Assembly (NCBI GenBank): GCA_022646745.1
Contig: CP060262.1
Coordinates: 750,001 to 782,000 of the forward strand
Length of the DNA: 32,000 nucleotides
Direction: 5' to 3'
Source: Planctomycetales bacterium
GTDB taxonomy: Bacteria > 4484-113 > JAFGCY01
Part shown: positions 3,002 through 31,288 of the stretch, one piece after another
How the letters are laid out: the number at the start of each line of letters is the position of its first letter
Position numbering within the stretch: position 1 is the first letter of the stretch
Position numbers and translations under genes: made by a program
Notes under the pieces: model-generated
Told to the model about the DNA's origin: nothing
Databases searched by the model: none
What the model saw: the letters and a program-made list of their open reading frames with translations, nothing else

Positions 3002-3609
3002 TCCCTTTCATCCTTCATCCTGCGGTTAGCCGCCCACTGCTTGCTGTCCTCATACTGTTCCTGCTCCTCAATGCTCCAGCCGACCGGCTTGCGAATCGGC
3101 CAGGCGATGATCAGCATCATCCCGCCGGACAGCATCGCAATCAACCTGACCAGTCCGCTGTAGTTCTGCCCGCCGGCCGTCACGAAGGGGTTGCCATAGC
3201 GCTCTATGAACAGGTGCAGCAGGCAGGCTCCCAGCAGCAGCAGGAATCCGGGGATGCCAAGCCCGAGCGTGTACTTCATCGGCTTGATGTGCAGCACAGT
3301 CCCGTCAGGCTTGTCCACCAGGTCGTCTCGGGCGTGTTCAAAGGCATGGCGCATCATGCGATGCGACTTCTGGTAGTCCATCAGGCGCAGGTCGCCCAGA
3401 TGTACGCTGGCTCCCGGGGCGTTGCTGCCTTCGCCATACCCGCTGCGGTCCCGTGGCGCTGCCTCCTGCCTGCTGTCCTTGTTTCGCTTGTCCAATTCAA
3501 ATCCCCCTTCGATTGGACGCCATGGTTTTGTGTGGGGAGTCGCGCTCCCGATAAATTCACACCGAACATATGCAGGATAACGGATGTCCTGAGTGGACGC
3601 TGCTATCAT
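2998..3609 (-). CDS. hypothetical 2-TM membrane protein, paralog 3 of 3 (start uncertain)
   Basis: Up to 203 aa. Motifs: GLGIPGFLLL, LVRL, WPIRKPVGWSIEEQEQYE. An alternative TTG start at 3495 has GAAGGGGG 7 nt upstream, and would leave room for the divergent promoter of the 3632 gene. Confidence 0.55.
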   Translation of the reverse strand: MIAASTQDIRYPAYVRCEFIGSATPHTKPWRPIEGGFELDKRNKDSRQEAAPRDRSGYGEGSNAPGASVHLGDLRLMDYQKSHRMMRHAFEHARDDLVDKPDGTVLHIKPMKYTLGLGIPGFLLLLGACLLHLFIERYGNPFVTAGGQNYSGLVRLIAMLSGGMMLIIAWPIRKPVGWSIEEQEQYEDSKQWAANRRMKDERE

Positions 3610-3631
3610 GCAAGCCTGAGGTTGCTATCCA

Positions 3632-4129
3632 ATGAAGAAGATGATCATCGCTGCCTGCCTGTCACTGCTCGCTCTGAGCGCCCTTGCACATGCCAAGGAG
3701 CAGCCGAAGCCCGCCAGCTTCAAGCCCGGGGCCTCCGTTGAGCTCGTGGTGAAGGTGAATGCCCCGAAGGGCTGGGCGCACAACCCGATGATGCCGCTCA
3801 AGCTCAGCTTCGACCCGGAGTACCTCAAGACCGCCCCCTTCACCGTGGCGCAGAACAGCTTCGAGGTGAAGTTCGAGGGACATCCGACCAGCGCTGAAGT
3901 GAAGGTTCCGATCAAGCTCAAGGGCTCCCTGAATGACGGTGAGCTGAGCATCCCCGCCAAGCTGGACGCCTTCATCTGCACCGTGGATGAGAGCATGTGC
4001 ATCATGGCCAGCGAGGAAACCAGCCTGCATGTACGGGTGCAGGGCAAGGCCGGCAAGGGTGAGAAGGACCAGGCGCTGGACAAGGGCAGCCTGAGCCTCA
4101 GCCATGTGCTGACCCCGCCGGAAGTCTAG
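3632..4129 (+). CDS. secreted protein resembling the N-terminal (alpha) domain of DsbD
   Basis: 165 aa with Sec signal MKKMIIAACLSLLALSALAHA. Has a PKGWAHN motif and a late Cys pair FICTVDESMCI, arranged as in DsbD_N-type immunoglobulin-like domains. GAGG lies 10 nt upstream and TGCTATCAT at 3601-3609. Confidence 0.45.
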   Translation: MKKMIIAACLSLLALSALAHAKEQPKPASFKPGASVELVVKVNAPKGWAHNPMMPLKLSFDPEYLKTAPFTVAQNSFEVKFEGHPTSAEVKVPIKLKGSLNDGELSIPAKLDAFICTVDESMCIMASEETSLHVRVQGKAGKGEKDQALDKGSLSLSHVLTPPEV

Positions 4130-4194: not shown

Positions 4195-5826
4195 TTGAGG
4201 AAGGAAGGCGAATTCCGTACAACTGCCTGGGGTCATGTTCTGCGCTGCTTGCTGGCGGTCATCACTGGACTGCTGCTGTGCCGGCCCCATGCCGCTGCGT
4301 GCGCCGAGCTGTCGGACTTCCCGGACTACCTGACTGCCACGGGTGAGGTCTCACTGGTGGCCGACCAGTACGGCAACTTCGAGATCCTGACTGCCGATTT
4401 CGCCACCCTGCGCATCACCTCCCTTTCCTCCCAGGACACCATCGTTGTCAATGCCGACCGGGTGGAATTCCACCGTGTGACCGGTGAAGTAGAGCTGTAC
4501 GGCAATGTCAGCATCGGCCTCGATGGCGAGGGCAGCCTGTTGCAGTGCGAGCAGTTCAGCTGGGACCCGCTGATGGAGCAGATGGAGGTCAGCGAGCTGC
4601 ACCTGAACCTGCCGCTCAACCTGCTTTTGTCCGACGGCCTGCCGGAGCACCGCATCCGCGCCCGCTTCAGCGGCCACCTGTACGAAACCCTGCCTGAGCT
4701 GCTGATCCTCTACAGCGAGGATGTGCAGCTGGACTTCAGCCCGCGACGCCGGCGCTTCGAGCTGCGCAATGTGCAGTTCACCCACAGCCCGCATCCGGAC
4801 CCGGACCTGTTCTTCACCGCCGATGAGGTGAATGTCGACCCCGGCCAGGGCATCCAGTTCATCAACATCTCGCTGATCGCAAGCGGGCACCGCATCTTCT
4901 CACTCGGCCGGCTGCGCCGCAACCTGCAGGGCAAGGAGCATATCTACGGCTTCGGCTTCCCCGAGGTGCGCATCCACAAGGATGTCGGCTTCTCCTGGAA
5001 GCAGCCGCTGACCCTGCGCCTCGGCGAGCTGGAGAACGACCTGGTGGTGGACTTCCAGGAGGACCGCGGCATCCTGATGCGTGGCGAGAGCTACGTCGAG
5101 CCGTTCAACGGGATGAAGCTCGGCGCGCTCTACGGCCAGGAGCGCGTGAAGGACTATCTGCAGAAGTCCTACGAACGGCGCGACGACTTCACGCTGTTCC
5201 TTTCGCATGAGGCGGACCGCCCGAATGACCTGCTGGAGTTCTCGCGGGTTGACATTGAATATGGCAACGTGAATGCGCGGGCTGACTTCAATGACCCGGA
5301 ATTCGACCGCAGCACCAGCCAGGAGCTGGAACCCCCGTCGGTGGATGACAACTTCGGCGTGGAGGACCGCCGACTGTTCGCCGAAGGTGAGTGGGACTTC
5401 CGCCTGGTGCAGCTCAGTGATGACGTGTACCTTGCAAGCGGGATCCAGAGCCGCTACGTGAACTACAACGACGCAGACCAGTACTACACCGCTGTGGGCG
5501 GTGAAGTGGCGATCATCTACCCCGAGGGCGACTTCAACCACTACCTGCAGTACCGCCTGAATGCGATCAACGGCGACCGCGACAGCAAGGGCCGGCCGCT
5601 GATGGGCTTCGATGCGGTGCGCCGCCAGGAGCTGGACTTCGCCACGCAGTTCCACCTGCACCGCCGCTGGCGCCACGTGTTCCATGGCACCTACGACATT
5701 GACCGTGAGGAATTCGACAAGTTCGAGGTCGGCGCGCTCAGGCGCCAGCACAGCTATGAGATCGGCATGTACTGGGACTTCGTGCGGGAAAGTGCCGGGC
5801 TGGAATTCGGGCTGGTGATCGACTGA
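4195..5826 (+). CDS. hypothetical envelope protein with OstA/LptD-like N-terminal region
   Basis: 543 aa with a TTG start and a hydrophobic N-terminus. Residues ~45-140 (ATGEVSLVADQ...VNADRVEFHRVTGEVELYGNVSI) resemble the OstA/LptA beta-jellyroll. The remainder is rich in alternating aromatic/polar residues, as in beta-barrels. It is shorter than canonical LptD and lacks a terminal aromatic residue. Confidence 0.35.
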   Translation: MRKEGEFRTTAWGHVLRCLLAVITGLLLCRPHAAACAELSDFPDYLTATGEVSLVADQYGNFEILTADFATLRITSLSSQDTIVVNADRVEFHRVTGEVELYGNVSIGLDGEGSLLQCEQFSWDPLMEQMEVSELHLNLPLNLLLSDGLPEHRIRARFSGHLYETLPELLILYSEDVQLDFSPRRRRFELRNVQFTHSPHPDPDLFFTADEVNVDPGQGIQFINISLIASGHRIFSLGRLRRNLQGKEHIYGFGFPEVRIHKDVGFSWKQPLTLRLGELENDLVVDFQEDRGILMRGESYVEPFNGMKLGALYGQERVKDYLQKSYERRDDFTLFLSHEADRPNDLLEFSRVDIEYGNVNARADFNDPEFDRSTSQELEPPSVDDNFGVEDRRLFAEGEWDFRLVQLSDDVYLASGIQSRYVNYNDADQYYTAVGGEVAIIYPEGDFNHYLQYRLNAINGDRDSKGRPLMGFDAVRRQELDFATQFHLHRRWRHVFHGTYDIDREEFDKFEVGALRRQHSYEIGMYWDFVRESAGLEFGLVID

Positions 5827-5981
5827 AACCTGACTCTCATTCGTCAATCGAAATGAGACCAAAATCCACGGCTTTTTCACCGATGTATGCCTATATATCT
5901 GGTCAAAACAGCCCGAACCGTATAAAATCAGTGGGCGGTATTCGGAACGGGGCTGCGGATTGTTAAACCCCGGCCGGTCAG

Positions 5982-9050: not shown

Positions 9051-10157
9051 CTAGCCATGAAGCATCAGCTTCTCGGCGATGCCCCGGCCCTCCTCGGTCA
9101 GGCGCAGGATGCTGTCCTGCTCGCGCAGCATGCGGTGGCGCTGGGCGTAGCCGATCACCTCGCGGGCGAACTGCTCCTGCCAGTGCATGTGTTCCGCGAT
9201 GTTCTCCGTGTTGCACTCCACCGGCTCCTCCGGGCGGCCCTCATGGTTGGCAATGTGCACCGCGAGCATCTGCGCCGGGAACAGCAGGCGCTGCTCGGCC
9301 TGCTGCATCCAGCGGCTGACGAGCCCACGCTCGGGGGCCAGCAGCCAGCAGACGAGGAAGCAGATCCCGCAGGCGGCGGCGATGCAGCCGGCGATGTTGG
9401 AGTCGATCCTGACCGCAAGGTAGTAACCGCCTACTGCACTCACAGTTGCCAGCAGCGCACTCCAGCCCAGCATCTGCGCCAGCGAGCGTGACAGCAGCCA
9501 GGCGGCGGAAGGCGGCGCGATCATCAGCGCCACCATCAGGATGCTGCCCACGGCGTCAAAGCTGGCAACAGCGGTCACACTGACCAGGCTGACCAGCAGG
9601 TAATGCAGCAGGAGCGGCGAGAAGCCGAGCGAGGCGGCCAGCCCGGCGTCGAATATCGACAGCTTCAGTTCCTTGTAGCAGAGCGTGACGAACAGCAGGT
9701 TGGCCAGCAGCACGGCGGAGCTGACAATGAAGCTGCGCGGCAGGTCCATGCCGAGTACGCTTGCGGTGTCCATCCAGGCAAATCCCAGCTCACCGAGCAG
9801 CACGGCGTCGGTGTCGAGGTGCACGTCCCCCGCCATGCGCGTGATCAGGATCACTCCGATCGAGAACAGGAGCGGGAACACCAGGCCGATGGCGCTGTCC
9901 TCCCGCAGGCGGCGCGTGCCGAGCAGCAGCTGGATCAGCACGACGGTCAGTACACCGACGGCGGCTGCTCCGACCAGCAGCCAGGGGGAATTCAGGTCGC
10001 GCGTTGCCAGGAAGGCCAGTACGATGCCCAGCAGCACGGAGTGTGAGATTGCATCGCTGATCAGGCTCATGCGCCTGAGCACCAGCAGTGTACCGACAAG
10101 GCTGCAGCCGATGGCGACACTGGCAGCGGTCAGCAGGATGGACAGTTCAACGTTCAC
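9051..10157 (-). CDS. metal ABC transporter permease (ABC-3 family) with C-terminal DtxR-type winged-helix extension
   Basis: 368 aa. The ~280-aa polytopic core is typical of MntB/ZnuB/TroD permeases. The last ~85 aa (MLAVHIANHEG...IAEHMHWQEQFAREVIGYAQRHRMLREQDSILRLTEEGRGIAEKL) follow the DtxR N-terminal wHTH pattern. ATGA overlap with the upstream gene. Confidence 0.85.
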   Translation of the reverse strand: MNVELSILLTAASVAIGCSLVGTLLVLRRMSLISDAISHSVLLGIVLAFLATRDLNSPWLLVGAAAVGVLTVVLIQLLLGTRRLREDSAIGLVFPLLFSIGVILITRMAGDVHLDTDAVLLGELGFAWMDTASVLGMDLPRSFIVSSAVLLANLLFVTLCYKELKLSIFDAGLAASLGFSPLLLHYLLVSLVSVTAVASFDAVGSILMVALMIAPPSAAWLLSRSLAQMLGWSALLATVSAVGGYYLAVRIDSNIAGCIAAACGICFLVCWLLAPERGLVSRWMQQAEQRLLFPAQMLAVHIANHEGRPEEPVECNTENIAEHMHWQEQFAREVIGYAQRHRMLREQDSILRLTEEGRGIAEKLMLHG

Positions 10158-11275
10158 GTTGCCGCCTCCCCGCCGATGCTGCGCCGCGCTTCCTGCCAGC
10201 CGGCCTCCGTCAGCCGGATCCAGCCGCGCTCGCCGGAATACTCCACCCAGCCGAGGTCCACCATCACGGCGAGTGTCGATCGGGCGGCCTTCAGGCCGAC
10301 GGCCTGCAGGGCGTTGGGGTCATGCGGGCGGAAAGGGTCCGGGTCGGATTCCACCAGGCGGTAGAGCGCCTGCAGGATGCGCTGGGTCTCGATCCGGCGG
10401 CGGCTGGCAACATGCCGGAACCAGTCCGGCAACAGTCCGCGGTGCGGGGCCAGCAGGATTGCGAGCAGGGTCAGCACGCTGGCGATCACGACGATCACCG
10501 GCCCGGTGGGCAGCTTCTCCATACTGGCACTGAGCATTGCTCCGCCGATGCCGCTCATGGCTCCGAACAGCCCGCCGAGCAGCACGACATTCAGCAGCTT
10601 GTCGGAGAACTGCCGGGCAGCTGCCGCCGGGGCCACCACCAGCGCGCTCATCAGCACCACGCCGACGGCCTGCAGGCCGATCACGATCGCCAGCACGATC
10701 AGCGTTGTCAGCGTGGTGTCCAGCATGCGCTCCGGCAGGCCGGTGCTGGCGGCGAACTGCGGGTCGAAGCTGATCAGCTTGAACTCCTTCCAGAACAGGG
10801 CAAGGCAGATGAGGCAGGCCAGCCCGAGCAGGCAGATCGTCCAGACATCGCGCGTCAGCATGGTGGAGGCATTTCCGAACAGGAAGGTTGACAGCCCGGC
10901 CTTGCCGGCGCTTGGCAGGCGGTTGACGATAACCAGCACCACGAGCCCGATGCCGAAGAACACGGAAAGCACGATGCCGAGCGCACTATCCTCCCGCAGG
11001 CGGGTGCTGCGGGTGATCGCGCTGACGAGCAGTGTGCCGAGCCAGCCGCTGGCCAGGGCACCGAGCACCAGCACCAGCGGGTCTCGCGAACCGCTGAGCA
11101 GGAACGCAATGGCAACGCCGGGCAGCGCCGCATGTGAGATCGCGTCACCGAGCAGGCTCTGGCGCCTGAGCAGAGCGAACACACCGAGCGCTCCGGCGGT
11201 GAAGCCCAGCAGCGCGCAGCCCAGCATCACCGTGCGCACGGTGTAGTCGGACAGCAGCGCGCCCAGGCCATCCAT
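10154..11275 (-). CDS. metal ABC transporter permease (ABC-3 family) with C-terminal DtxR-type winged-helix extension
   Basis: 373 aa. Polytopic ABC-3 core, then the tail ILQALYRLVESDPDPF...STLAVMVDLGWVEYSGERGWIRLTEAGWQEARR. Its start shares 1 nt with the ATPase stop. Confidence 0.85.
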   Translation of the reverse strand: MDGLGALLSDYTVRTVMLGCALLGFTAGALGVFALLRRQSLLGDAISHAALPGVAIAFLLSGSRDPLVLVLGALASGWLGTLLVSAITRSTRLREDSALGIVLSVFFGIGLVVLVIVNRLPSAGKAGLSTFLFGNASTMLTRDVWTICLLGLACLICLALFWKEFKLISFDPQFAASTGLPERMLDTTLTTLIVLAIVIGLQAVGVVLMSALVVAPAAAARQFSDKLLNVVLLGGLFGAMSGIGGAMLSASMEKLPTGPVIVVIASVLTLLAILLAPHRGLLPDWFRHVASRRRIETQRILQALYRLVESDPDPFRPHDPNALQAVGLKAARSTLAVMVDLGWVEYSGERGWIRLTEAGWQEARRSIGGEAAT

Positions 11276-12030
11276 CAGCCGTCCCCGCCTTCCTGCTTCA
11301 TCAGGTAGGCCGAGCGGCCGCCGTAGGTCATTGCCAGCATCTCCGGCGTGGCGGTCGTGGCCACCGGGCCGGCGGCGATCGCACGCACGTTCAGCAGCAA
11401 TACCCAGTCGAAGTACTCGGCCAGCGTTGACAGGTCGTGGTGCACCACCAGCAGGGTCCGGCCGCGCTCGCGCAGCTCCTTCAGGATGCCGACGATTGCC
11501 TTCTCGGTGGTTACATCGACTCCGGCGAAGGGTTCGTCAAGGAAGTAGATCTCGCTGTCCTGCACCAGCGCTCTGGCGAGGAACACGCGCTGCTGCTGCC
11601 CACCGGACAGCTGGCTGATCTGGCGGTTGGCGAAGTCCGTCATCCCGACGCGCTCCAGGGCCTGCATTGCCAGTTCACGTTCCCGTTTGCCGGGACGGCG
11701 GAACCAGCCCAGTTCGCTGTAGCGGCCCATCATGACAACGTCGAGCGCGGTGGTCGGGAAGTCCCAGTCCACGCTGGAGCGCTGCGGTACGTAGCCGATC
11801 AGCCGGCGCTGCCGTGACAGCGGCTCACCCTTGATGAACACGCGCCCTGCGGCCGGCCGGACGAGGCCGAGGATGGACTTCAGCAGGGTGGTCTTGCCTG
11901 CGCCGTTGGGGCCGACGATTGCCATCAGCACACCGGGCGGTACCTCGAGGTCGACATCCCAAAGCACCGGGTTCTCCCGGTAGGCCACGGTGATGTCCTC
12001 CACCCGGATCGCCGGTGTCACTCCGTCCAT
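11275..12030 (-). CDS. metal ABC transporter ATP-binding protein
   Basis: 251 aa. Walker [10 protein letters not shown], signature [15 protein letters not shown], Walker [13 protein letters not shown]-loop VVHHD. ZnuC/MntA/TroB-like. Confidence 0.9.
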
Positions 12031-13058
12031 GCCGGCCTCTCCCAGAGCGGGTTGCCATTTTCATCGCTGATCGAATACGGAATGGTCCCGCCCAGCGCCT
12101 GGACAATTGTCATCACATTGTGCCGGATCATGCCGTCATAGGTCCCGTCCGGCGTGCCTGCTGTGCCCATTGCATCACTGTAAAGTTCCCCGCCGATCTG
12201 CACCTCGAAGCCGCGGCTGCTGCAGGCGGCCTGCACGGCCTCGATGTTGCGCTGCGGCACACTGCTTTCCACGAAGATCGCCGGGATGCGCCGCTCGACG
12301 ATGAACTCCGCCAGCTCACGCACATCAGCAGTGCCGGCTTCGGCCTGGGTGCTGATGCCCTGCAGGCCGCGTACCTCATACCCGTATGCCTTGCCAAAAT
12401 AGTTGAATGCATCATGCGCGGTGATCAGCACACGTGATTCCTCCGGAACGGTGCCAAGCGCTTCAGTCACAGCCAGCTGCAGCACATCCAGGTCTGTCCA
12501 CAGGTCCATCCAGTTTCCCTCGAATTCGTCATGTAGTTCGGGCCTAAGTTCCTGAAGGTTGGTCCTGACCGTTTCCGCTGCTGACATCCACAGTTCCACA
12601 TCCATCCAGACATGCGGGTCATACAGGCCCTCGAACTGCGCAGGCTTGTCCAGCCTGCCACGGTCTATGCCGTCAGTCACGGCAACCACCGGCCGCTGCT
12701 GCCCGAGCTTCTCCAGCAGCTCCCCGAGCTTGGCCTCCAGGTGCAGGCCGTTGTAGAACACGATGTCCGCATCGGCCAGCGCCTGCACATCCCCGGTGGT
12801 GGCCTGGTAGAGGTGCGGATCCACGCCAGGGCCCATCATGCAGTAGACATCTAGCTGGCTGCCACCGATCCGTTCCACGATGTCGGCGATCATGCCTGTG
12901 GTGCAGACCACCCTGATCGGGCCAGCGTTGTCAACCGTCTTGCCGGCCATCCCATCCGATCCGGACTCGGGCGAGTCCTCGCGGCAGGACCCGGCCAGCA
13001 GCAGGAACGCTCCCAGCAGGATTGCCAGCAGGGCATGTATTACTTGCCTGTTGTTCAT
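12018..13058 (-). CDS. metal-binding lipoprotein, TroA/ZnuA (cluster A-I) substrate-binding protein
   Basis: 346 aa with a signal peptide ending LLAGSC. Ligand-position motifs [21 protein letters not shown] and ELYSDAMG give a His-His-His-Asp TroA-like set. No His-rich loop. Confidence 0.85.
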
Positions 13059-14068
13059 GATGCATCCTCCTCCTGCCAGACCTTGTCCAGCAGGGTGAGG
13101 TCAGCACCCAGCGCGACCACGATGCGGCGCATCTCGCCCAGCAGCGTGGCATGGAATCCGGCTGCCTCATCCGGCAGCCCATCCATCTGCAGGCCGCTTA
13201 CGTTGGCAAGCTCCAGCCCGCGCTCCCTGCATGCCGTCTGCAGCGCTTCGATGCGGTCGGCCGGCACGTTCCCATCGAGGAACACCGCCGGCACTTTTCT
13301 CTCAACGAGGTAGTCGGCGAGGGCGTCGATCTTCTGCTGGTCCGCCAGTTCGGCAATGTCATCCTTCGTCATTGCCATCAGCTCGAATCGGTTCGTGCGT
13401 GCCAGGTAGCTGCTGCCGTGGATGTTCGTCACCAGCACGCGCTGGCTGTCCGTCAGGCTGCCGTTGAGGTCCAGCATGCGGGTGTCCAGCTTCATCAGGT
13501 CCATGTAGTAATCGGCATAACGTGAGGCGAAGTAGCCATCCTGTGCCGGGTCAAGGGCCAGCAGGGCATTGCGCACGGTGTCGGACACCTTGCGCCAGAG
13601 CTCGACATCGAGCCAGACATGCGGGTCGTACTGCCCGCCGTAGGCATTGGTCGCCATCAGCCGGTCGTTGTCAATCTCGTAAGTCACTTCCACCAGCGTG
13701 CCGGCCTGCCGCGCCAGTTCCAGCTCGGAAGCCAGGCCGGCTTCAAGTCCCAGTCCGTTGGACAGCACAAGCTGCGCTGTTGCCAGCGCCTGCCTGTCAG
13801 CATCGCTTGCCACATAGGAATGCGGGTCAGTGCCGGCAGGGATGATCAGTGTCACGTTGGCGTGTTCATCACCGATCGCGCGGGCGATCTCAGCGATCAG
13901 CGCAGTGGTACAGACGACATTCATCGGGCTTCCCCCGCCGGCTGCCGGTTCGATGTCAACGGCAGCGGCCTGTGTGTTTTCAGTCTTCGCCTCACTGCGG
14001 CCTTCATTGCATGACAGGGCCAGCAGCAGGATTGCCAGGAGCGTGATGCATGTCCGCAGCCTGTTCAT
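13055..14068 (-). CDS. second, divergent TroA/ZnuA-family metal-binding lipoprotein
   Basis: 337 aa with a signal peptide ending LALSC. Keeps DPHSY and DPHVWLD. The third ligand region reads VTNIHGSSY (His shifted by one position) and the fourth LQMDGLP. ATGA overlaps at both ends. Confidence 0.75.
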   Translation of the reverse strand: MNRLRTCITLLAILLLALSCNEGRSEAKTENTQAAAVDIEPAAGGGSPMNVVCTTALIAEIARAIGDEHANVTLIIPAGTDPHSYVASDADRQALATAQLVLSNGLGLEAGLASELELARQAGTLVEVTYEIDNDRLMATNAYGGQYDPHVWLDVELWRKVSDTVRNALLALDPAQDGYFASRYADYYMDLMKLDTRMLDLNGSLTDSQRVLVTNIHGSSYLARTNRFELMAMTKDDIAELADQQKIDALADYLVERKVPAVFLDGNVPADRIEALQTACRERGLELANVSGLQMDGLPDEAAGFHATLLGEMRRIVVALGADLTLLDKVWQEEDAS

Positions 14069-14571
14069 GCCCGGTCACCGGATCCGCTGGCATCCCCCAG
14101 CAGGGTGAATGCTCCGCTGCCGTTAAGCTCGGCGGCTTCGCGCAGGCGCCTGCGTGTGGCGTCGTCAATCTTCTGCCAGGCTTCCAGCCAGTGATGCAGG
14201 CGCTCGCTGGTCTCACCGCTCAGCCCATGTTCCATCACGCAGGCTTCGGACTCCGCCTTCTCCCGCGGCACACCCAGCACTTCCGCCAGCAGGAACACCA
14301 CGTCGTCATGGCGGTGCGCCAGCTGCTGGGCCAGGCTTTGTCCGATCTCACTGAGAAACACCGGTCCGCGGTCCTCCTGGATCACGAGACCCATGCTGCG
14401 CAGGCGGGTCAGTGTGCGGCTGACGGTCGGAAGCTTGGTGGCGAGCTTCGCGGCGATGTCCGTCACGCGTACCCCTTCACCTGCTTCATCCGCAAGGGCC
14501 AGAGCATAGACCGCCTCCAGGTAGTCCTGCTGCGCGGCACTGAGCTCCGGCTGTTCATTGATACTGTCCAT
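14065..14571 (-). CDS. DtxR/MntR-family metal-dependent transcriptional regulator
   Basis: 168 aa. N-terminal wHTH (QQDYLEAVYALA...VTDIAAKLATKLPTVSRTLTRLRSMGLV), then a dimerisation/metal-site helix with HRHDDV...E..C..EH. First gene of the operon. Confidence 0.85.
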   Translation of the reverse strand: MDSINEQPELSAAQQDYLEAVYALALADEAGEGVRVTDIAAKLATKLPTVSRTLTRLRSMGLVIQEDRGPVFLSEIGQSLAQQLAHRHDDVVFLLAEVLGVPREKAESEACVMEHGLSGETSERLHHWLEAWQKIDDATRRRLREAAELNGSGAFTLLGDASGSGDRA

Positions 14572-28360: not shown

Positions 28361-30268
28361 CTAGCTGAGCTTGAAGCCGCTCACCATCGCGGTCAGCTCC
28401 TGGGCCAGGGCGCTAAGGTGGCCAGCGTTGTCAGCCACGCCACGGATGTTCTCCTGCTGGCTCTGGGCATTGCTGGCAACCTCTTCGCTGGCAGCGGAGT
28501 TCTCCTCACTGACTGCCGCCACGTTCTGCATCACGTTGACGACCTCGCCGGTCGAGGCATTGATCTCCTCGGCGGCGGCGGAGATGTTCTGCACTCGCTC
28601 CGTCAGGTCCTGCACGCCCTTGACGATCTCGTCGAGGATCTCGCTGGCCTGGGCGACGATTGCCGCGCCTGCGCTGACTTCCTCACTGCTCTTGTCCATC
28701 GCATCCAGTGCGGTGGTCATCTCGCCCTCGATGCTCTTCACGAGGCTCGTGATGTTGCCGGCAGCCGTATTGCTCTCCTCGGCCAGCTTGCGCACCTCCT
28801 CGGCCACCACCGCGAATCCGCGTCCGGCCTCGCCGGCACGGGCAGCCTCGATCGCTGCGTTGAGGGCCAGCAGGTTGGTCTGGTCCGCGATGCCGGTGAT
28901 GGTGCCGATGAACTGGCTGATCTGGGCGGTCTTCTCACCGAGTGACTTGACGACGTCACCGGTCTGCTGCACGCTGGCGTTGGCACGGCTGATCACCTGC
29001 ACCGCCTCGTCCGTGGCCTTCTTGCCGTCGCTGCCCTGCTGCGCCGCCTGGGTGGCGAAGCTGGCGACGTCCTCGATGTCGCGGGAGATGTTCTCGATCG
29101 CCATCGCGTTCTGGTTCAGGCTTTCCTGCGCCTCGCCGAGGTTCTGGTTGGTGTCCTCACTGCCGCGGGCCACCTGCTCGATCGTGCGGGTGATCTCCTG
29201 GATGCTGCTCTGGCTGTCACTGGAGGCCTTGGACATCATCTCGGATGAATTCATCACCTGCGATGTGGCAGCGCTGAACTTGCTGATCACACTCTGCATG
29301 CTTTCGATCAGCACGTTCACATATCCGGCCATCTGGCCGATCTCATCGTTGTTCTGTGACTTGACACGGCTCGTCAGGTCGGCCTTGCCGGCTGCCACGT
29401 CGTTGGCAAGCATTTCCACGTCGCGGCTCATGGCGGCCAGCGGCTTGCTCATGGTGAAGGTGGTGGCCACGCCGACCAGCAGTGCGCTGATCAGGATGAT
29501 CGCTACAGCGGCCATTGCAATGCTCTGGTTCTGGGCGGCAATCGCGCCCTCCAGCACGGAGCGGTCCTGCACGACCTCGAACATGCCGTGCACCATTCCG
29601 GGCTTCCAGCCCTCCATCTTCATGCCCAGCGGGTCATAACCGTCGCCATCCGGATCGTCCGCCGCGGTGCCGTGGCAAAGCATGCAGGACTCATCAAGCA
29701 CGACCGCACGGGCAAAGCGCAGCTTTGCATCTTGGGGAGCTGCGGCCACACCGTCAACCTTTTTGCCGCGCATCCAGTGGCCATCCTCGTAGACGGCGTC
29801 ATAGACCTCGCCGTTGTCCATATAGCCAATTGCACTATCGGCTCCACCATCGATCAGGCTGGTCAGGTATTTGAGGAGTACGTCCTCACTCTCATCCGGG
29901 TTGTTCTTTTCATTGCGTGCGGAATGGGCTGGCGTGTGGAATTCGTAACCGGATTCCTCCGACTTCGTTCCGCCGATGGTCCAGCCGGCAACCACAGGGA
30001 TCGTCCAGAAGAACCTGTCAGTGATGTCCTCTTCACTCTTGAGCAGGTCCTCATCGTTGAACACGGTGTACTTGGCGCGCAGGTCACCGATGTAGTTTCG
30101 TCCGTTCTCGGCTTCCTGGGTGATCGCCACGGCCTTCGCCACGAAGCTATCCTGGATGGACTTGCTCACCCCGGTGCTCACGACGAATCCGTTGACGACG
30201 AAGGCGATGATCAGCAATGCAATGATCACCATGATCAGTTTGGCCCTGATGGTCAGGTTCTTTAGCAT
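28361..30268 (-). CDS. methyl-accepting chemotaxis protein with c-type-haem (CxxCH) periplasmic sensor domain
   Basis: Probable start is ATG 30268 ([11 protein letters not shown]..., GGGGG 6 nt upstream); the tracked ORF extends to 30301. The periplasmic region carries [12 protein letters not shown] and [17 protein letters not shown]...[14 protein letters not shown], as in Tll0287-like/DUF3365 haem-c sensor domains. HAMP and a conserved MCP signalling domain follow. Confidence 0.85.
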
Positions 30269-30660
30269 TTGGACCCCCGAGGTCACTAGTATTTCCGCCA
30301 TTTGTCCGGCGGCGCTCTTATTGAAGGATGTTACGCGGATTGCAGCGTTCCATCTTTAACCTGCGATGCAATTGGGGTGCAGATTTGGTTGCGGCCCGCC
30401 ATGTCGTGGCATGGAAGCTATCGTCGGCTGGATCCCGTTCTTGAACGGAGGGGTGTGGTAACTTTGCGGGTACTCAAACCGGAACAATCCAGCTGGACCA
30501 AGAAAATTTTTGTTCCATCCGCAAGTCAGGCCAAAATCGGTGGAAATGTCCGCAATCTGTTAACGGAATTTGATTTTTGGACTGATGTTTTCAGTCCATA
30601 TAATAGTGTGTTCTTCCAGTGTTAATCAGACGCATAAGCCACTTGATAACAAATTACCAC

Positions 30661-30688
30661 TTGAAATTTTCGTAATATGTGCTATATA
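30661..30688 (+). promoter_or_regulatory. near-consensus promoter TTGAAA-N16-TATATA
   Basis: TTGAAA at 30661-30666 and TATATA at 30683-30688. Lies about 90 nt upstream of ATG 30778 in a visibly AT-rich spacer. Confidence 0.5.
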
Positions 30689-30777
30689 TGTTCGTTCTTA
30701 AGAGGTGGCCAGCGGCTACCCGGCGAATGGACAGACCTGACGGCTGTTATTCGCAATTTCCAATTTGGGAGTATAAA

Positions 30778-31185
30778 ATGCGTCTAGTAGTAGTTTTGAT
30801 GGTGGGTCTGTTCCTGATGGCTCTGTGTGGCTGTCCCGCATCCGACAACGGTGGTAGCGATACCCCCGCCGTGACCGGTGGCACCTCTGATGCCGGCACC
30901 GAAAACCCCTGCATGGGTGGTGAGGCTGCTGATGAGCACGCCGGCCATGACCACGCCGCTGGCGAGGGCCATGAGGACGGTGGCGAGAACCCGTGTGGTG
31001 AGAACCCCTGCGCGGGCGACAACCCCTGCAACCCCTGCGGCGGTGAGAATCCCTGTGGTGAAAACCCGTGTGGTGAGAACCCCTGCGGCGACAACCCGTG
31101 TGGCGACAACCCGTGTGGCGATAACCCCTGCGGCGACAACCCCTGCAACCCCTGCGGTGGCGGCGAGAACCCCTGCGGTCACTAG
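30778..31185 (+). CDS. lipoprotein composed of G-D/E-N-P-C pentapeptide repeats with a His-rich patch
   Basis: ATG 30778 has GGGAG 8 nt upstream. Signal and lipobox MRLVVVLMVGLFLMALCG|C. His patch DEHAGHDHAAGEGHEDGG. 14 N-P-C motifs follow. The tracked ORF start at 30679 lies upstream of the promoter -10 region. Confidence 0.7.
   Translation: MRLVVVLMVGLFLMALCGCPASDNGGSDTPAVTGGTSDAGTENPCMGGEAADEHAGHDHAAGEGHEDGGENPCGENPCAGDNPCNPCGGENPCGENPCGENPCGDNPCGDNPCGDNPCGDNPCNPCGGGENPCGH
30982..31176 (+). repeat. in-frame 15-bp coding tandem repeat (ggy-gan-aay-ccn-tgy)
   Basis: About 12 units, differing mainly at synonymous third positions (ccc/ccg, tgc/tgt, ggc/ggt, gac/gat). Two 9-bp aacccctgc insertions create NPCNPC. 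Confidence 0.9.
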
Positions 31186-31213
31186 TAGATAAACGATCAA
31201 CAGAAACGAAACA

Positions 31214-31238
31214 GGCCCGCCGATCCGGCGGGCCTTTT
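31214..31238. terminator. rho-independent terminator between convergent genes
   Basis: ggcccgccg / cggcgggcc 9-bp stem with 3-nt loop, followed by ttttcatttt on the + strand. An A-rich run precedes it, so it may act bidirectionally. Confidence 0.75.
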
Positions 31239-31288
31239 CATTTTCTGATTATGCTGGCGCAAGGCAGATGCAGCCTGCTTTCCCCAGA

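Follow-up and report, generated by a model that had tools for sequence, protein, structure and literature searches.

A predicted Asn-Pro-Cys repeat lipoprotein as a candidate envelope metal buffer, and exported arrays of the same motif across bacteria

The 32,000-nucleotide stretch of DNA analysed here (the window; positions 750,001 to 782,000 of contig CP060262.1, assembly GCA_022646745.1, from a Planctomycetales bacterium placed by GTDB in 4484-113) encodes, at 30778..31185 (+), a small protein with 14 copies of the tripeptide Asn-Pro-Cys (N-P-C) behind a lipoprotein signal. The gene is genuine, coding in the N-P-C frame and under purifying selection, and arrays of the same motif recur in exported proteins of many bacterial lineages. 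The array seems to be undescribed in Pfam, NCBIfam and the literature searched; exported cysteine-array proteins as such are already known. Our preferred but tentative reading, held at slightly less than even confidence, is that the window protein is abundant and disordered, hangs from a lipid anchor, and uses its many thiols and imidazoles to bind metals or other thiol-reactive species.

The gene, its product and selection on the repeat peptide

Reading of the sequence together with the list of open reading frames (ORFs) gives a 135-residue product (MRLVVVLMVGLFLMALCGCPASDNGGSDTPAVTGGTSDAGTENPCMGGEAADEHAGHDHAAGEGHEDGGENPCGENPCAGDNPCNPCGGENPCGENPCGENPCGDNPCGDNPCGDNPCGDNPCNPCGGGENPCGH), all parts of which are encoded on the plus strand. 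The signal peptide (residues 1-18, 30778..30831) consists of Met-Arg, 14 hydrophobic residues and the lipobox residues L-C-G, and AlphaFold2 models a helix over its residues 2-16. Cys19 (30832..30834) is by its lipobox position the predicted lipid-modified mature N-terminus and is invariant in alignment A6. It is followed by a Gly/Ser/Asp/Thr linker (residues 20-51, 30835..30930) that holds a lone T-E-N-P-C unit (30898-30912), by a His/acidic patch, DEHAGHDHAAGEGHEDGG (residues 52-69, 30931..30984), four His of which are kept in the ortholog P0002 (DDHSGHGHAPGEHD), and by the array proper (residues 70-135, 30985..31182), found by repeat finding and counting, with 13 of the 14 motifs, both NPCNPC doublets and a C-terminal G-H. 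The stop codon TAG (31183..31185) is directly followed by a second TAG. Judged by reading of the sequence rather than with a dedicated predictor, the protein counts as carrying a lipoprotein signal under the [LVI][ASTVI][GAS]C lipobox criterion. The form is L-C-G-C in the window protein and the canonical L-S-G-C in P0002, which, with the invariant Cys, bears out the lipoprotein signal claimed in the original prediction from the sequence alone.

That prediction had also listed 14 N-P-C motifs, two of the NPCNPC form, and the His/acidic patch, and all of these were recovered on counting; its 12 G-[DE]-N-P-C pentapeptides have to be lowered to 11, as the twelfth unit is the T-E-N-P-C at residues 41-45. 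Nine of the Cys spacings are C-x4-C, and Tandem Repeats Finder detects a 15-bp period in the underlying DNA. The mature chain from Cys19 comprises 117 residues, among which one Val and one Met are the only hydrophobic ones, and its distinctive chemistry lies in the 14 thiols within N-P-C, five imidazoles, 22 carboxylates and the lipid anchor. With a small alignment, the confidence of the AlphaFold2 model is confined to the signal helix (residues 2-16), while residues 33-135 have a predicted local distance difference test (pLDDT) score below 50 and no secondary structure. The mature part is thus predicted to lack a folded core, in agreement with the earlier view that such a core is implausible.

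According to the ORF list three further frames are open across the repeat, and the repeat copy number differs between strains. Both observations would be expected if the ORF were spurious or decaying, thrown up by an expanded GC-rich 15-bp DNA repeat and without function at the protein level. We regard this as extremely improbable, and it is contradicted by the pattern of third-position changes in one relative and by conservation in another. The former is L099 ('MAG: bacterium isolate UBP7 HKST-UBA01', MAG standing for metagenome-assembled genome), the species representative found by the genome scan described below, which shares 92% identity with the window along 3.4 kb. The two coding sequences differ at 25 nucleotides, every one of which (25/25) falls at a third codon position of the N-P-C frame and of that frame only; 23 of the changes are synonymous and two are E->D. 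This upholds the N-P-C frame against the worry, raised in the original prediction, that one of the overlapping repeat frames might be the real product. Codon differences among the gene's own 11 units comprise 105 synonymous and 30 non-synonymous ones, the latter all D/E exchanges, a spread that fits selection on the peptide. The earlier claims that the units differ mostly at synonymous sites and that it is the peptide which is selected are both sustained by these comparisons.

The more distant relative is L001, a 4484-113 MAG with a 20-kb orthologous locus, whose N-P-C protein P0002 is 62% identical to the window protein. P0002 retains the signal peptide, an L-S-G-C lipobox, the four patch His and 18 N-P-C motifs, and its repeat unit is GDNPCNPC, of 24 bp as against 15 bp in the window. 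Since the unit has changed and the N-P-C reading nevertheless stays, selection acts on the peptide and not on the DNA repeat. This relative, whose flanking genes are 71-82% identical to those of the window, keeps the signal peptide with its lipobox, the promoter, the ribosome-binding site and the terminator.

Variation in repeat number is illustrated by strain L138, from another metagenome (gene at 1085-1417, protein P0001), in which both flanks match the window at 99.8% identity and the array carries one clean 75-bp in-frame deletion, equal to five units, between identical repeat copies. This may be either in-frame slippage or recombination or a collapse of the short-read assembly; with that alternative, the in-frame variation in repeat number suggested earlier has found an example.

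N-P-C arrays in other bacteria and their genomic neighbours

The window protein matches nothing in Pfam or in NCBIfam (including the NCBIfam models of ribosomally synthesised peptides with post-translational modifications, RiPPs, at E<=10), as anticipated by the earlier statement that its family is not a recognised one, and a literature search for N-P-C-repeat strings found nothing describing them. We scanned 185,579 species genomes for three N-P-C codon triplets at a 5-residue period and obtained at least 119 stretches, from which at least 57 loci were retained after removal of other-frame and non-secreted repeats. Many matches of the xNPCx kind, from GC-rich Actinomycetota or from intergenic repeats of Cyanobacteria, were set aside as non-coding or other-frame, the frames concerned being non-secreted or very short. 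A phmmer search against 1.84 billion cluster representatives gave 300 matches, about 45 of which were kept after filtering for the N-P-C motif; most of the top matches were unrelated, Cys-free pentapeptide low-complexity proteins and were dropped on their N-P-C count. We propose an N-P-C-repeat exported family, defined by at least five N-P-C motifs, mostly at a period of 3-8 residues, behind a Sec or lipoprotein signal, and with its 14 motifs the window protein falls within it. The original prediction had ventured that such a family might exist; the genome scan and the phmmer search together indicate that it does and that it is broad.

Arrays of this kind are found in Alpha-, Beta-, Gamma- and Zetaproteobacteria (Thalassospira, Terasakiella, Emcibacter, Pseudomonas, Nitrincola, Sedimenticola, Mariprofundaceae) and also in Cyanobacteria (Leptolyngbya), Myxococcota (Haliangium), Gemmatimonadota, Nitrospinota and UBP7/4484-113. 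Among the matches listed, a Sec or lipoprotein signal precedes every credible array. The residues between the motifs are typically A/K in Pseudomonadota and G/D/E in Myxococcota and UBP7, and the Asn of the motif is sometimes Asp in Cyanobacteria, while Pro-Cys is constant.

The 68 N-P-C proteins longer than 150 residues show a range of fused partners: SoxA/TsdA-type cytochrome c (23 cases), cytochrome P460 (11), YHS (7) and DM13 (3), with single cases of YceI, a cyclophilin and a solute-binding domain. The YHS partner matches the NCBIfam model 'YHS domain-containing (seleno)protein'. The extremes come from an unclassified MAG (L012:5473-7355; L110:6511-7407), where a secreted protein of 317 residues with 37 N-P-C motifs stands before a cytochrome c-like protein whose C-terminal tail contains 20 of them. 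At another locus (L134) a stand-alone N-P-C lipoprotein (220-558) directly precedes a cyclophilin tethered by an N-P-C stretch (613-1455). Several independent small N-P-C proteins display His clusters or xHHE mature N-termini; seven small Sec-type ones (P0004, P0076, P0140, P0144, P0165, P0169 and P0177) have a predicted mature start of A/D/G-H-H-E, with His at position 3. Such a start recalls the way Helicobacter Hpn begins, as well as the amino-terminal Cu(II)/Ni(II)-binding (ATCUN-type) site.

The small N-P-C lipoprotein genes of Myxococcota are solitary, as is that of the window. The Sec-type P0003/P0008 loci, on the other hand, present a conserved periplasmic set in which the N-P-C protein comes after an FGE-like protein, a fusion of multihaem cytochrome with thioredoxin and a YHS protein, in that order, and this locus type also encodes a second thioredoxin-fold protein. 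When Pfam scans of neighbours in Pseudomonadota were pooled, DUF6969 (PF22308) emerged as the sole clearly recurrent family; families counted 3 or 4 times among the neighbours (Beta_elim_lyase, tRNA_Me_trans, rhodanese and others) were distrusted, some of the counts coming from close genomes such as L063/L113/L116. By clustering and tblastn, DUF6969 occurs in 19 N-P-C loci from at least 13 genera, namely at L035:3576-4316, L040:1356-2063, L049:3343-4119, L072:7023-7802, L104:5014-5739 and 14 further loci. It lies directly downstream of the N-P-C gene and in the same orientation in L049, L072 and L104, whereas in Thalassospira a periplasmic FGE-like gene, 42% identical to its counterpart in the P0008 loci, sits between the two; in the P0295 locus an FGE-like gene directly precedes DUF6969. 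The FGE-sulfatase-like proteins that neighbour N-P-C genes in two unrelated locus types (L035:2547-3416 and L002:6660-7484) are periplasmic and share this 42% identity.

Two Rhodobacteraceae-type loci add regulatory genes to this association. In L070 (1983-3293) sigF and nrsF lie between an N-P-C-cytochrome P460 gene and DUF6969, and in L125 (607-1872) a gene for an extracytoplasmic function (ECF) sigma factor was confirmed before DUF6969, next to a candidate nrsF ORF. This arrangement has a parallel in Caulobacter, where bufferins, which bind copper, are under the control of SigF/NrsF (PMC11626156). DUF6969 itself is a cytoplasmic protein of about 240 residues with invariant His, Asp and Glu (HYPxGDVYD...YYYHAH...EHGHFH), represented by more than 5000 clusters, all unnamed. 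Its AlphaFold2 model has a pLDDT of 93.6, and comparison with solved structures gave no match by sequence or fold (Foldseek against PDB, best E 0.88); a literature search for it returned nothing relevant. As DUF6969 is also encoded beside a secreted P460-like protein without N-P-C repeats, its link may be to the partner proteins and not to the repeat.

A candidate envelope metal buffer and the alternatives

On the reading that we favour, though at somewhat under an even chance, the product would be exported by Sec, lose its signal peptide and be lipidated at Cys19, as its lipobox suggests, leaving an unfolded acidic chain of 117 residues tethered to an envelope membrane. The chain would display 14 free thiols, each within an Asn-Pro-Cys turn, together with a cluster of five His, and metal ions of thiophilic or borderline character (for example Cu(I), Zn(II), Cd(II) or Ni(II)) could be bound in multidentate fashion by the thiolates and imidazoles. 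The result would be a high-capacity buffer or reservoir in the envelope, with a capacity that rises with the number of repeat units, and translation might be controlled through a hairpin that pairs with the Shine-Dalgarno sequence. Lipidation, metal binding, the choice of metal and any regulation are what we infer from sequence. Metal binding is our first choice because the motif recurs in periplasmic proteins of redox or metal type, because His clusters or xHHE starts appear in several independent small N-P-C proteins, and because NedA and HvfA, discussed below, offer a precedent. We further count in its favour the conservation of four patch His and the N-P-C motifs in P0002 at 62% identity and, as context, the association of arrays, by fusion or as gene neighbours, with YHS proteins, haem proteins, FGE-like proteins and sigF/nrsF.

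Several observations weigh against metal binding. The window gene has no adjacent metal-resistance or metal-sensing gene, its neighbours being chemotaxis receptors and a syntenic ABC/OEP operon, and genes for Zn/Mn uptake lie about 16 kb away. The small N-P-C proteins have a median His content of 0%, most being free of His. In the same or related lineages a cyclophilin (P0149, L134) or a solute-binding domain (L112:3320-4723) hangs from its lipid anchor by an acidic xENPC stretch, and the distant lipoprotein relatives P0173 and P0174 have zero or two N-P-C motifs. Finally, free thiols in an oxidising envelope would need a reducing system, and none was identified here.

Comparison with known systems suggests by analogy that the window protein would work most like the lipidated oxazolin NedA or like a metallothionein-type sponge; it falls outside the oxazolins, bufferins, CefA, pentapeptide-repeat proteins and metallothioneins as families. 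NedA of Neisseria dentiae, termed a 'DAG-RiPP', has a lipoprotein signal and EGKCG repeats, is lipidated on its lipobox Cys and belongs to the copper-binding oxazolin family (PMC13056109, PMC12452194, PMC11252979). With the oxazolins (NedA and HvfA of Haemophilus influenzae) the window protein shares the Sec/lipoprotein signal and tandem short Cys motifs of the form E-x-x-C-G. In contrast to them, it has N-P-C at a 5-residue period and not EGKCG within 17-residue repeats, it is predicted to be disordered where the oxazolin array is a predicted beta-helix, and no MNIO or DUF2063 gene lies nearby. The oxazolin model NF050188 (cut-off 95 bits) does not match the window protein at E<=10, and the best N-P-C protein, P0165, scores 23.8 bits. 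Bufferins (BufA1/DUF2282 and BufA2) are periplasmic, signal-peptide-bearing Cys peptides for copper homeostasis under SigF/NrsF, and about 16% of the Buf2 bufferins are lipoproteins (PMC12452194, PMC11626156). The likeness is that they too are exported Cys peptides and that SigF/NrsF also flanks some N-P-C genes; the window protein, however, has no DUF2282 match in Pfam and no MNIO neighbourhood.

By their description, the MNIO-linked 'CxxxxC' precursors (PMC12452194; 'Cluster X' of PMC13056109) have a signal peptide or lipoprotein signal and a conserved CxxxxC motif; N-P-C-x-x is formally a CxxxxC pattern. Their genes adjoin those for MNIO, DUF2063, DoxX and often Lactamase_B_2, whereas Pfam scans, covering the ORFs scanned in the window and in L001, found no MNIO (DUF692), DUF2063, DoxX or Lactamase_B_2. 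The 'Cys-every-fifth RiPP peptide CefA' (NF038108) resembles the window protein in having Cys at each fifth residue, and two N-P-C proteins score 15.3-18.6 bits against its model; the window protein itself does not match, its relatives stay below the 30-bit cut-off, and no maturase gene is adjacent. Our literature search on the CefA family found no paper. A pentapeptide-repeat (A[DN]LXX) beta-helix was rejected, there being no match to Pfam Pentapeptide and an AlphaFold2 model without strands at pLDDT <50. A bacterial metallothionein (SmtA/BmtA) was likewise rejected, there being no Pfam match and the window protein carrying an export signal.

Small low-complexity or disordered proteins that buffer metals via Cys, His or Met, or metal sponges, include SmtA/BmtA, SilE/PcoE and Hpn of Helicobacter pylori. 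In Hpn, pentapeptide repeats of the form EEGCC occur together with AHHEE at the N-terminus, which recalls the xHHE start of several small N-P-C proteins. Metallothioneins and Hpn are cytoplasmic, SilE and PcoE employ His/Met without Cys, and to our knowledge none of these proteins is lipid-anchored. By the Pfam searches the window protein has no sequence relationship to them. OmcA of Chlamydia is a small, very Cys-rich envelope lipoprotein that serves as a disulfide cross-linker of the outer-membrane complex and has neither N-P-C repeats nor a His patch; the window protein has no Pfam match to the OmcA family.

Some of the points against metal binding would fit a structural or spacer element, be it an abundant flexible lipoprotein with intermolecular disulfides, resembling OmcA, or a free-standing copy of the low-complexity tether by which enzymes of the lineage hang from the membrane, which we consider unlikely. 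The xENPC tethers of the cyclophilin and the solute-binding protein agree with it, as do a similar acidic stretch in L027 (~3100-3809), a second lipoprotein of the same MAG, where it forms the tether to the lipoprotein body, the variable repeat number, the relatives with few or no N-P-C motifs, and expression signals like those of an abundant small lipoprotein. However, strong purifying selection preserves the Cys of each unit, whereas what stands between the units can vary freely, and the conserved His patch would have no role in a spacer. Many secreted proteins without an anchor bear the array at a free N- or C-terminus with nothing linked to it, so that a pure linker role is insufficient. 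The count of Cys is even in 60 and odd in 55 of 115 N-P-C proteins (p = 0.71); with no bias towards even numbers, an all-disulfide structural state is not indicated and an obligatory one finds no support, although parity says little on intermolecular bonds.

Rather less probable, in our view, is a lipidated precursor of a modified peptide, akin to the DAG-RiPPs, in which enzymes encoded elsewhere in the genome would convert the cysteines of ENPCG, either ahead of export or after it, and the modified groups, not free thiols, would do the binding. RiPP precursors with a signal peptide or lipoprotein signal and repeated Cys pentapeptides are established (HvfA/NedA), MNIO enzymes modify the EGKCG units of oxazolins, and the 'CxxxxC' precursors with lipoprotein signals are described beside MNIO genes (PMC12452194; PMC13056109). 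ENPCG and EGKCG are both E-x-x-C-G, P0165 reaches the sub-threshold score against HvfA given above and others reach 15-19 bits against CefA, and the N-P-C genes of Pseudomonadota are tightly linked to the conserved, His-rich cytoplasmic DUF6969, with which they sometimes share an operon (L049, L072, L104), and also to a periplasmic FGE-like protein. What tells against such a precursor is that no MNIO, DUF2063, DoxX, radical SAM, DUF6969 or FGE-like gene is found in the 32-kb window or in the 20-kb L001 (tblastn with DUF6969 and the FGE-like protein gave nothing in the window, L001 or L099), and none of the first four in the other Pfam-annotated small-N-P-C loci. In addition, the window protein matches no RiPP model of NCBIfam, and the presence of DUF6969 beside an N-P-C-free P460-like protein allows that its link is to the partner proteins. 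Improbable, too, and to a slightly greater degree, is a thiol redox buffer or sulfur carrier, whose Cys would cycle between thiol, disulfide and persulfide, absorbing oxidants and electrophiles or passing sulfane sulfur to periplasmic enzymes. The SoxA/TsdA-type cytochrome is the commonest fusion partner (23/68), the YHS family includes selenoproteins, and the P0003/P0008 locus type combines a multihaem cytochrome-thioredoxin fusion with a second thioredoxin-fold protein; SigF/NrsF-type systems are reported to answer oxidative as well as metal stress (PMC3511200, PMC8315932). Against this, the surroundings of the window gene contain no gene for sulfur oxidation, thioredoxin or Dsb, rhodanese or sulfur-transport neighbours elsewhere are few, some of the counts coming from closely related genomes, and the His patch would go unexplained.

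Going beyond the window protein as a metal binder, we advance as a speculative idea, with a small chance of being right, that N-P-C arrays form an undescribed, phylum-spanning class of exported cysteine arrays whose thiols are processed or loaded by dedicated, likewise undescribed machinery (in Pseudomonadota DUF6969 plus the FGE-like protein, joined in some loci by an ECF sigma factor). Such a class would open a third way to periplasmic metallophore or redox proteins, next to the bufferins and oxazolins made by MNIO enzymes, with the window gene as its lipid-anchored stand-alone form in UBP7/4484-113, possibly under a new leader RNA. Envelope metal or redox buffering by small Cys-rich exported peptides has been recognised as widespread only recently (bufferins and oxazolins, 2024-2026), and the N-P-C array would add a further module of that kind, present in Alphaproteobacteria of marine origin and in iron-oxidising Zetaproteobacteria as well as in Cyanobacteria and uncultured phyla. 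Were its chemistry solved, hundreds of 'hypothetical' proteins could be annotated and DUF6969, with its more than 5000 clusters, would gain a testable partner. With its lipid anchor, His patch and 14 thiols the window gene offers a simple test object, which might also reveal a new regulatory leader.

Expression signals and genomic surroundings

Upstream of the gene lies a putative sigma-70-type promoter with an extended -10 (30661..30689, +), made up of TTGAAA (30661-30666), a 16-nt spacer and TGcTATATA(T), in a block identical in the window, L099 and L001. The original prediction had called it near-consensus; the consensus promoter scan did not report it, since its -10 ends in A, but the element is identical in the related 4484-113 MAG L001. 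Between promoter and start codon, fold prediction and comparison with L001 delineate a conserved 5' leader of 88 nt (30690..30777, +) with three predicted hairpins (30704-30720, 30723-30754 and 30755-30773), the third of which pairs with the Shine-Dalgarno GGGAG (30767-30771). The ATG follows six bases after GGGAG, and a 2-nt leader indel between the window and L001 disrupts the in-frame upstream extension, so that the ATG at 30778 is the start codon.

Aligned over 122 nt, the leader region (query 30640-30780) and its L001 counterpart share 86% identity, as compared to 71-82% for neighbouring conserved genes such as clpX, and promoter and leader include two blocks, of 31 and 27 nt, that are identical between the two. 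Promoter plus leader (window 30657-30777; L099 ~5779-5915, minus strand; L001 ~9879-10000) is better conserved than the coding sequence. The minimum free energy fold of the leader has z = -2.5, and in the consensus structure from three sequences pair-preserving changes occur in hairpin 1 only. Rfam gave no match in the leader region at E<=10, BLAST of the leader against all retrieved loci revealed no second copy, and two metagenome scans for it yielded zero matches, the comparison resting on the three sequences. The leader may serve to stabilise the mRNA of an abundant lipoprotein, or it may be a cis-regulatory RNA of an undescribed kind.

Downstream, the hairpin scan detects a bidirectional intrinsic terminator (31213..31245) with a 10-bp stem (31213..31235) of which 9 pairs are G-C, and a T-run; it is conserved in L099 and L001, is common to the convergent ABC ATPase gene, and agrees with the strong terminator claimed earlier. 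A sub-threshold Rfam match to 'Trp_leader' (31152-31241, +; 29.7 bits, gathering 41) was dismissed as a chance match to this terminator hairpin and its T-run. Taken together, the strong promoter, structured and conserved leader, good ribosome-binding site and strong terminator suggest, at the level of sequence features, an abundant protein.

The gene is monocistronic, with a divergent methyl-accepting chemotaxis protein gene upstream and the convergent ABC ATPase gene downstream, and is thus an isolated unit, as had been proposed. In the lineage of the window the order ScpB, ClpX, FAA hydrolase and N-P-C gene, then a convergent ABC ATPase/OEP/RDD operon, is syntenic, with no partner gene evident. 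Elsewhere in the window (~9051-14571, minus strand), pooled Pfam counts point to a metal-uptake set with two binding proteins of the ZnuA type, two ABC-3 permeases, one ABC ATPase and a repressor of the DtxR/MntR type. The divergent neighbour (28361-30301, minus strand) is a chemotaxis receptor with a periplasmic Tll0287-like sensor that contains a CxxCH motif (CMLCH), and this sensor probably binds haem c.

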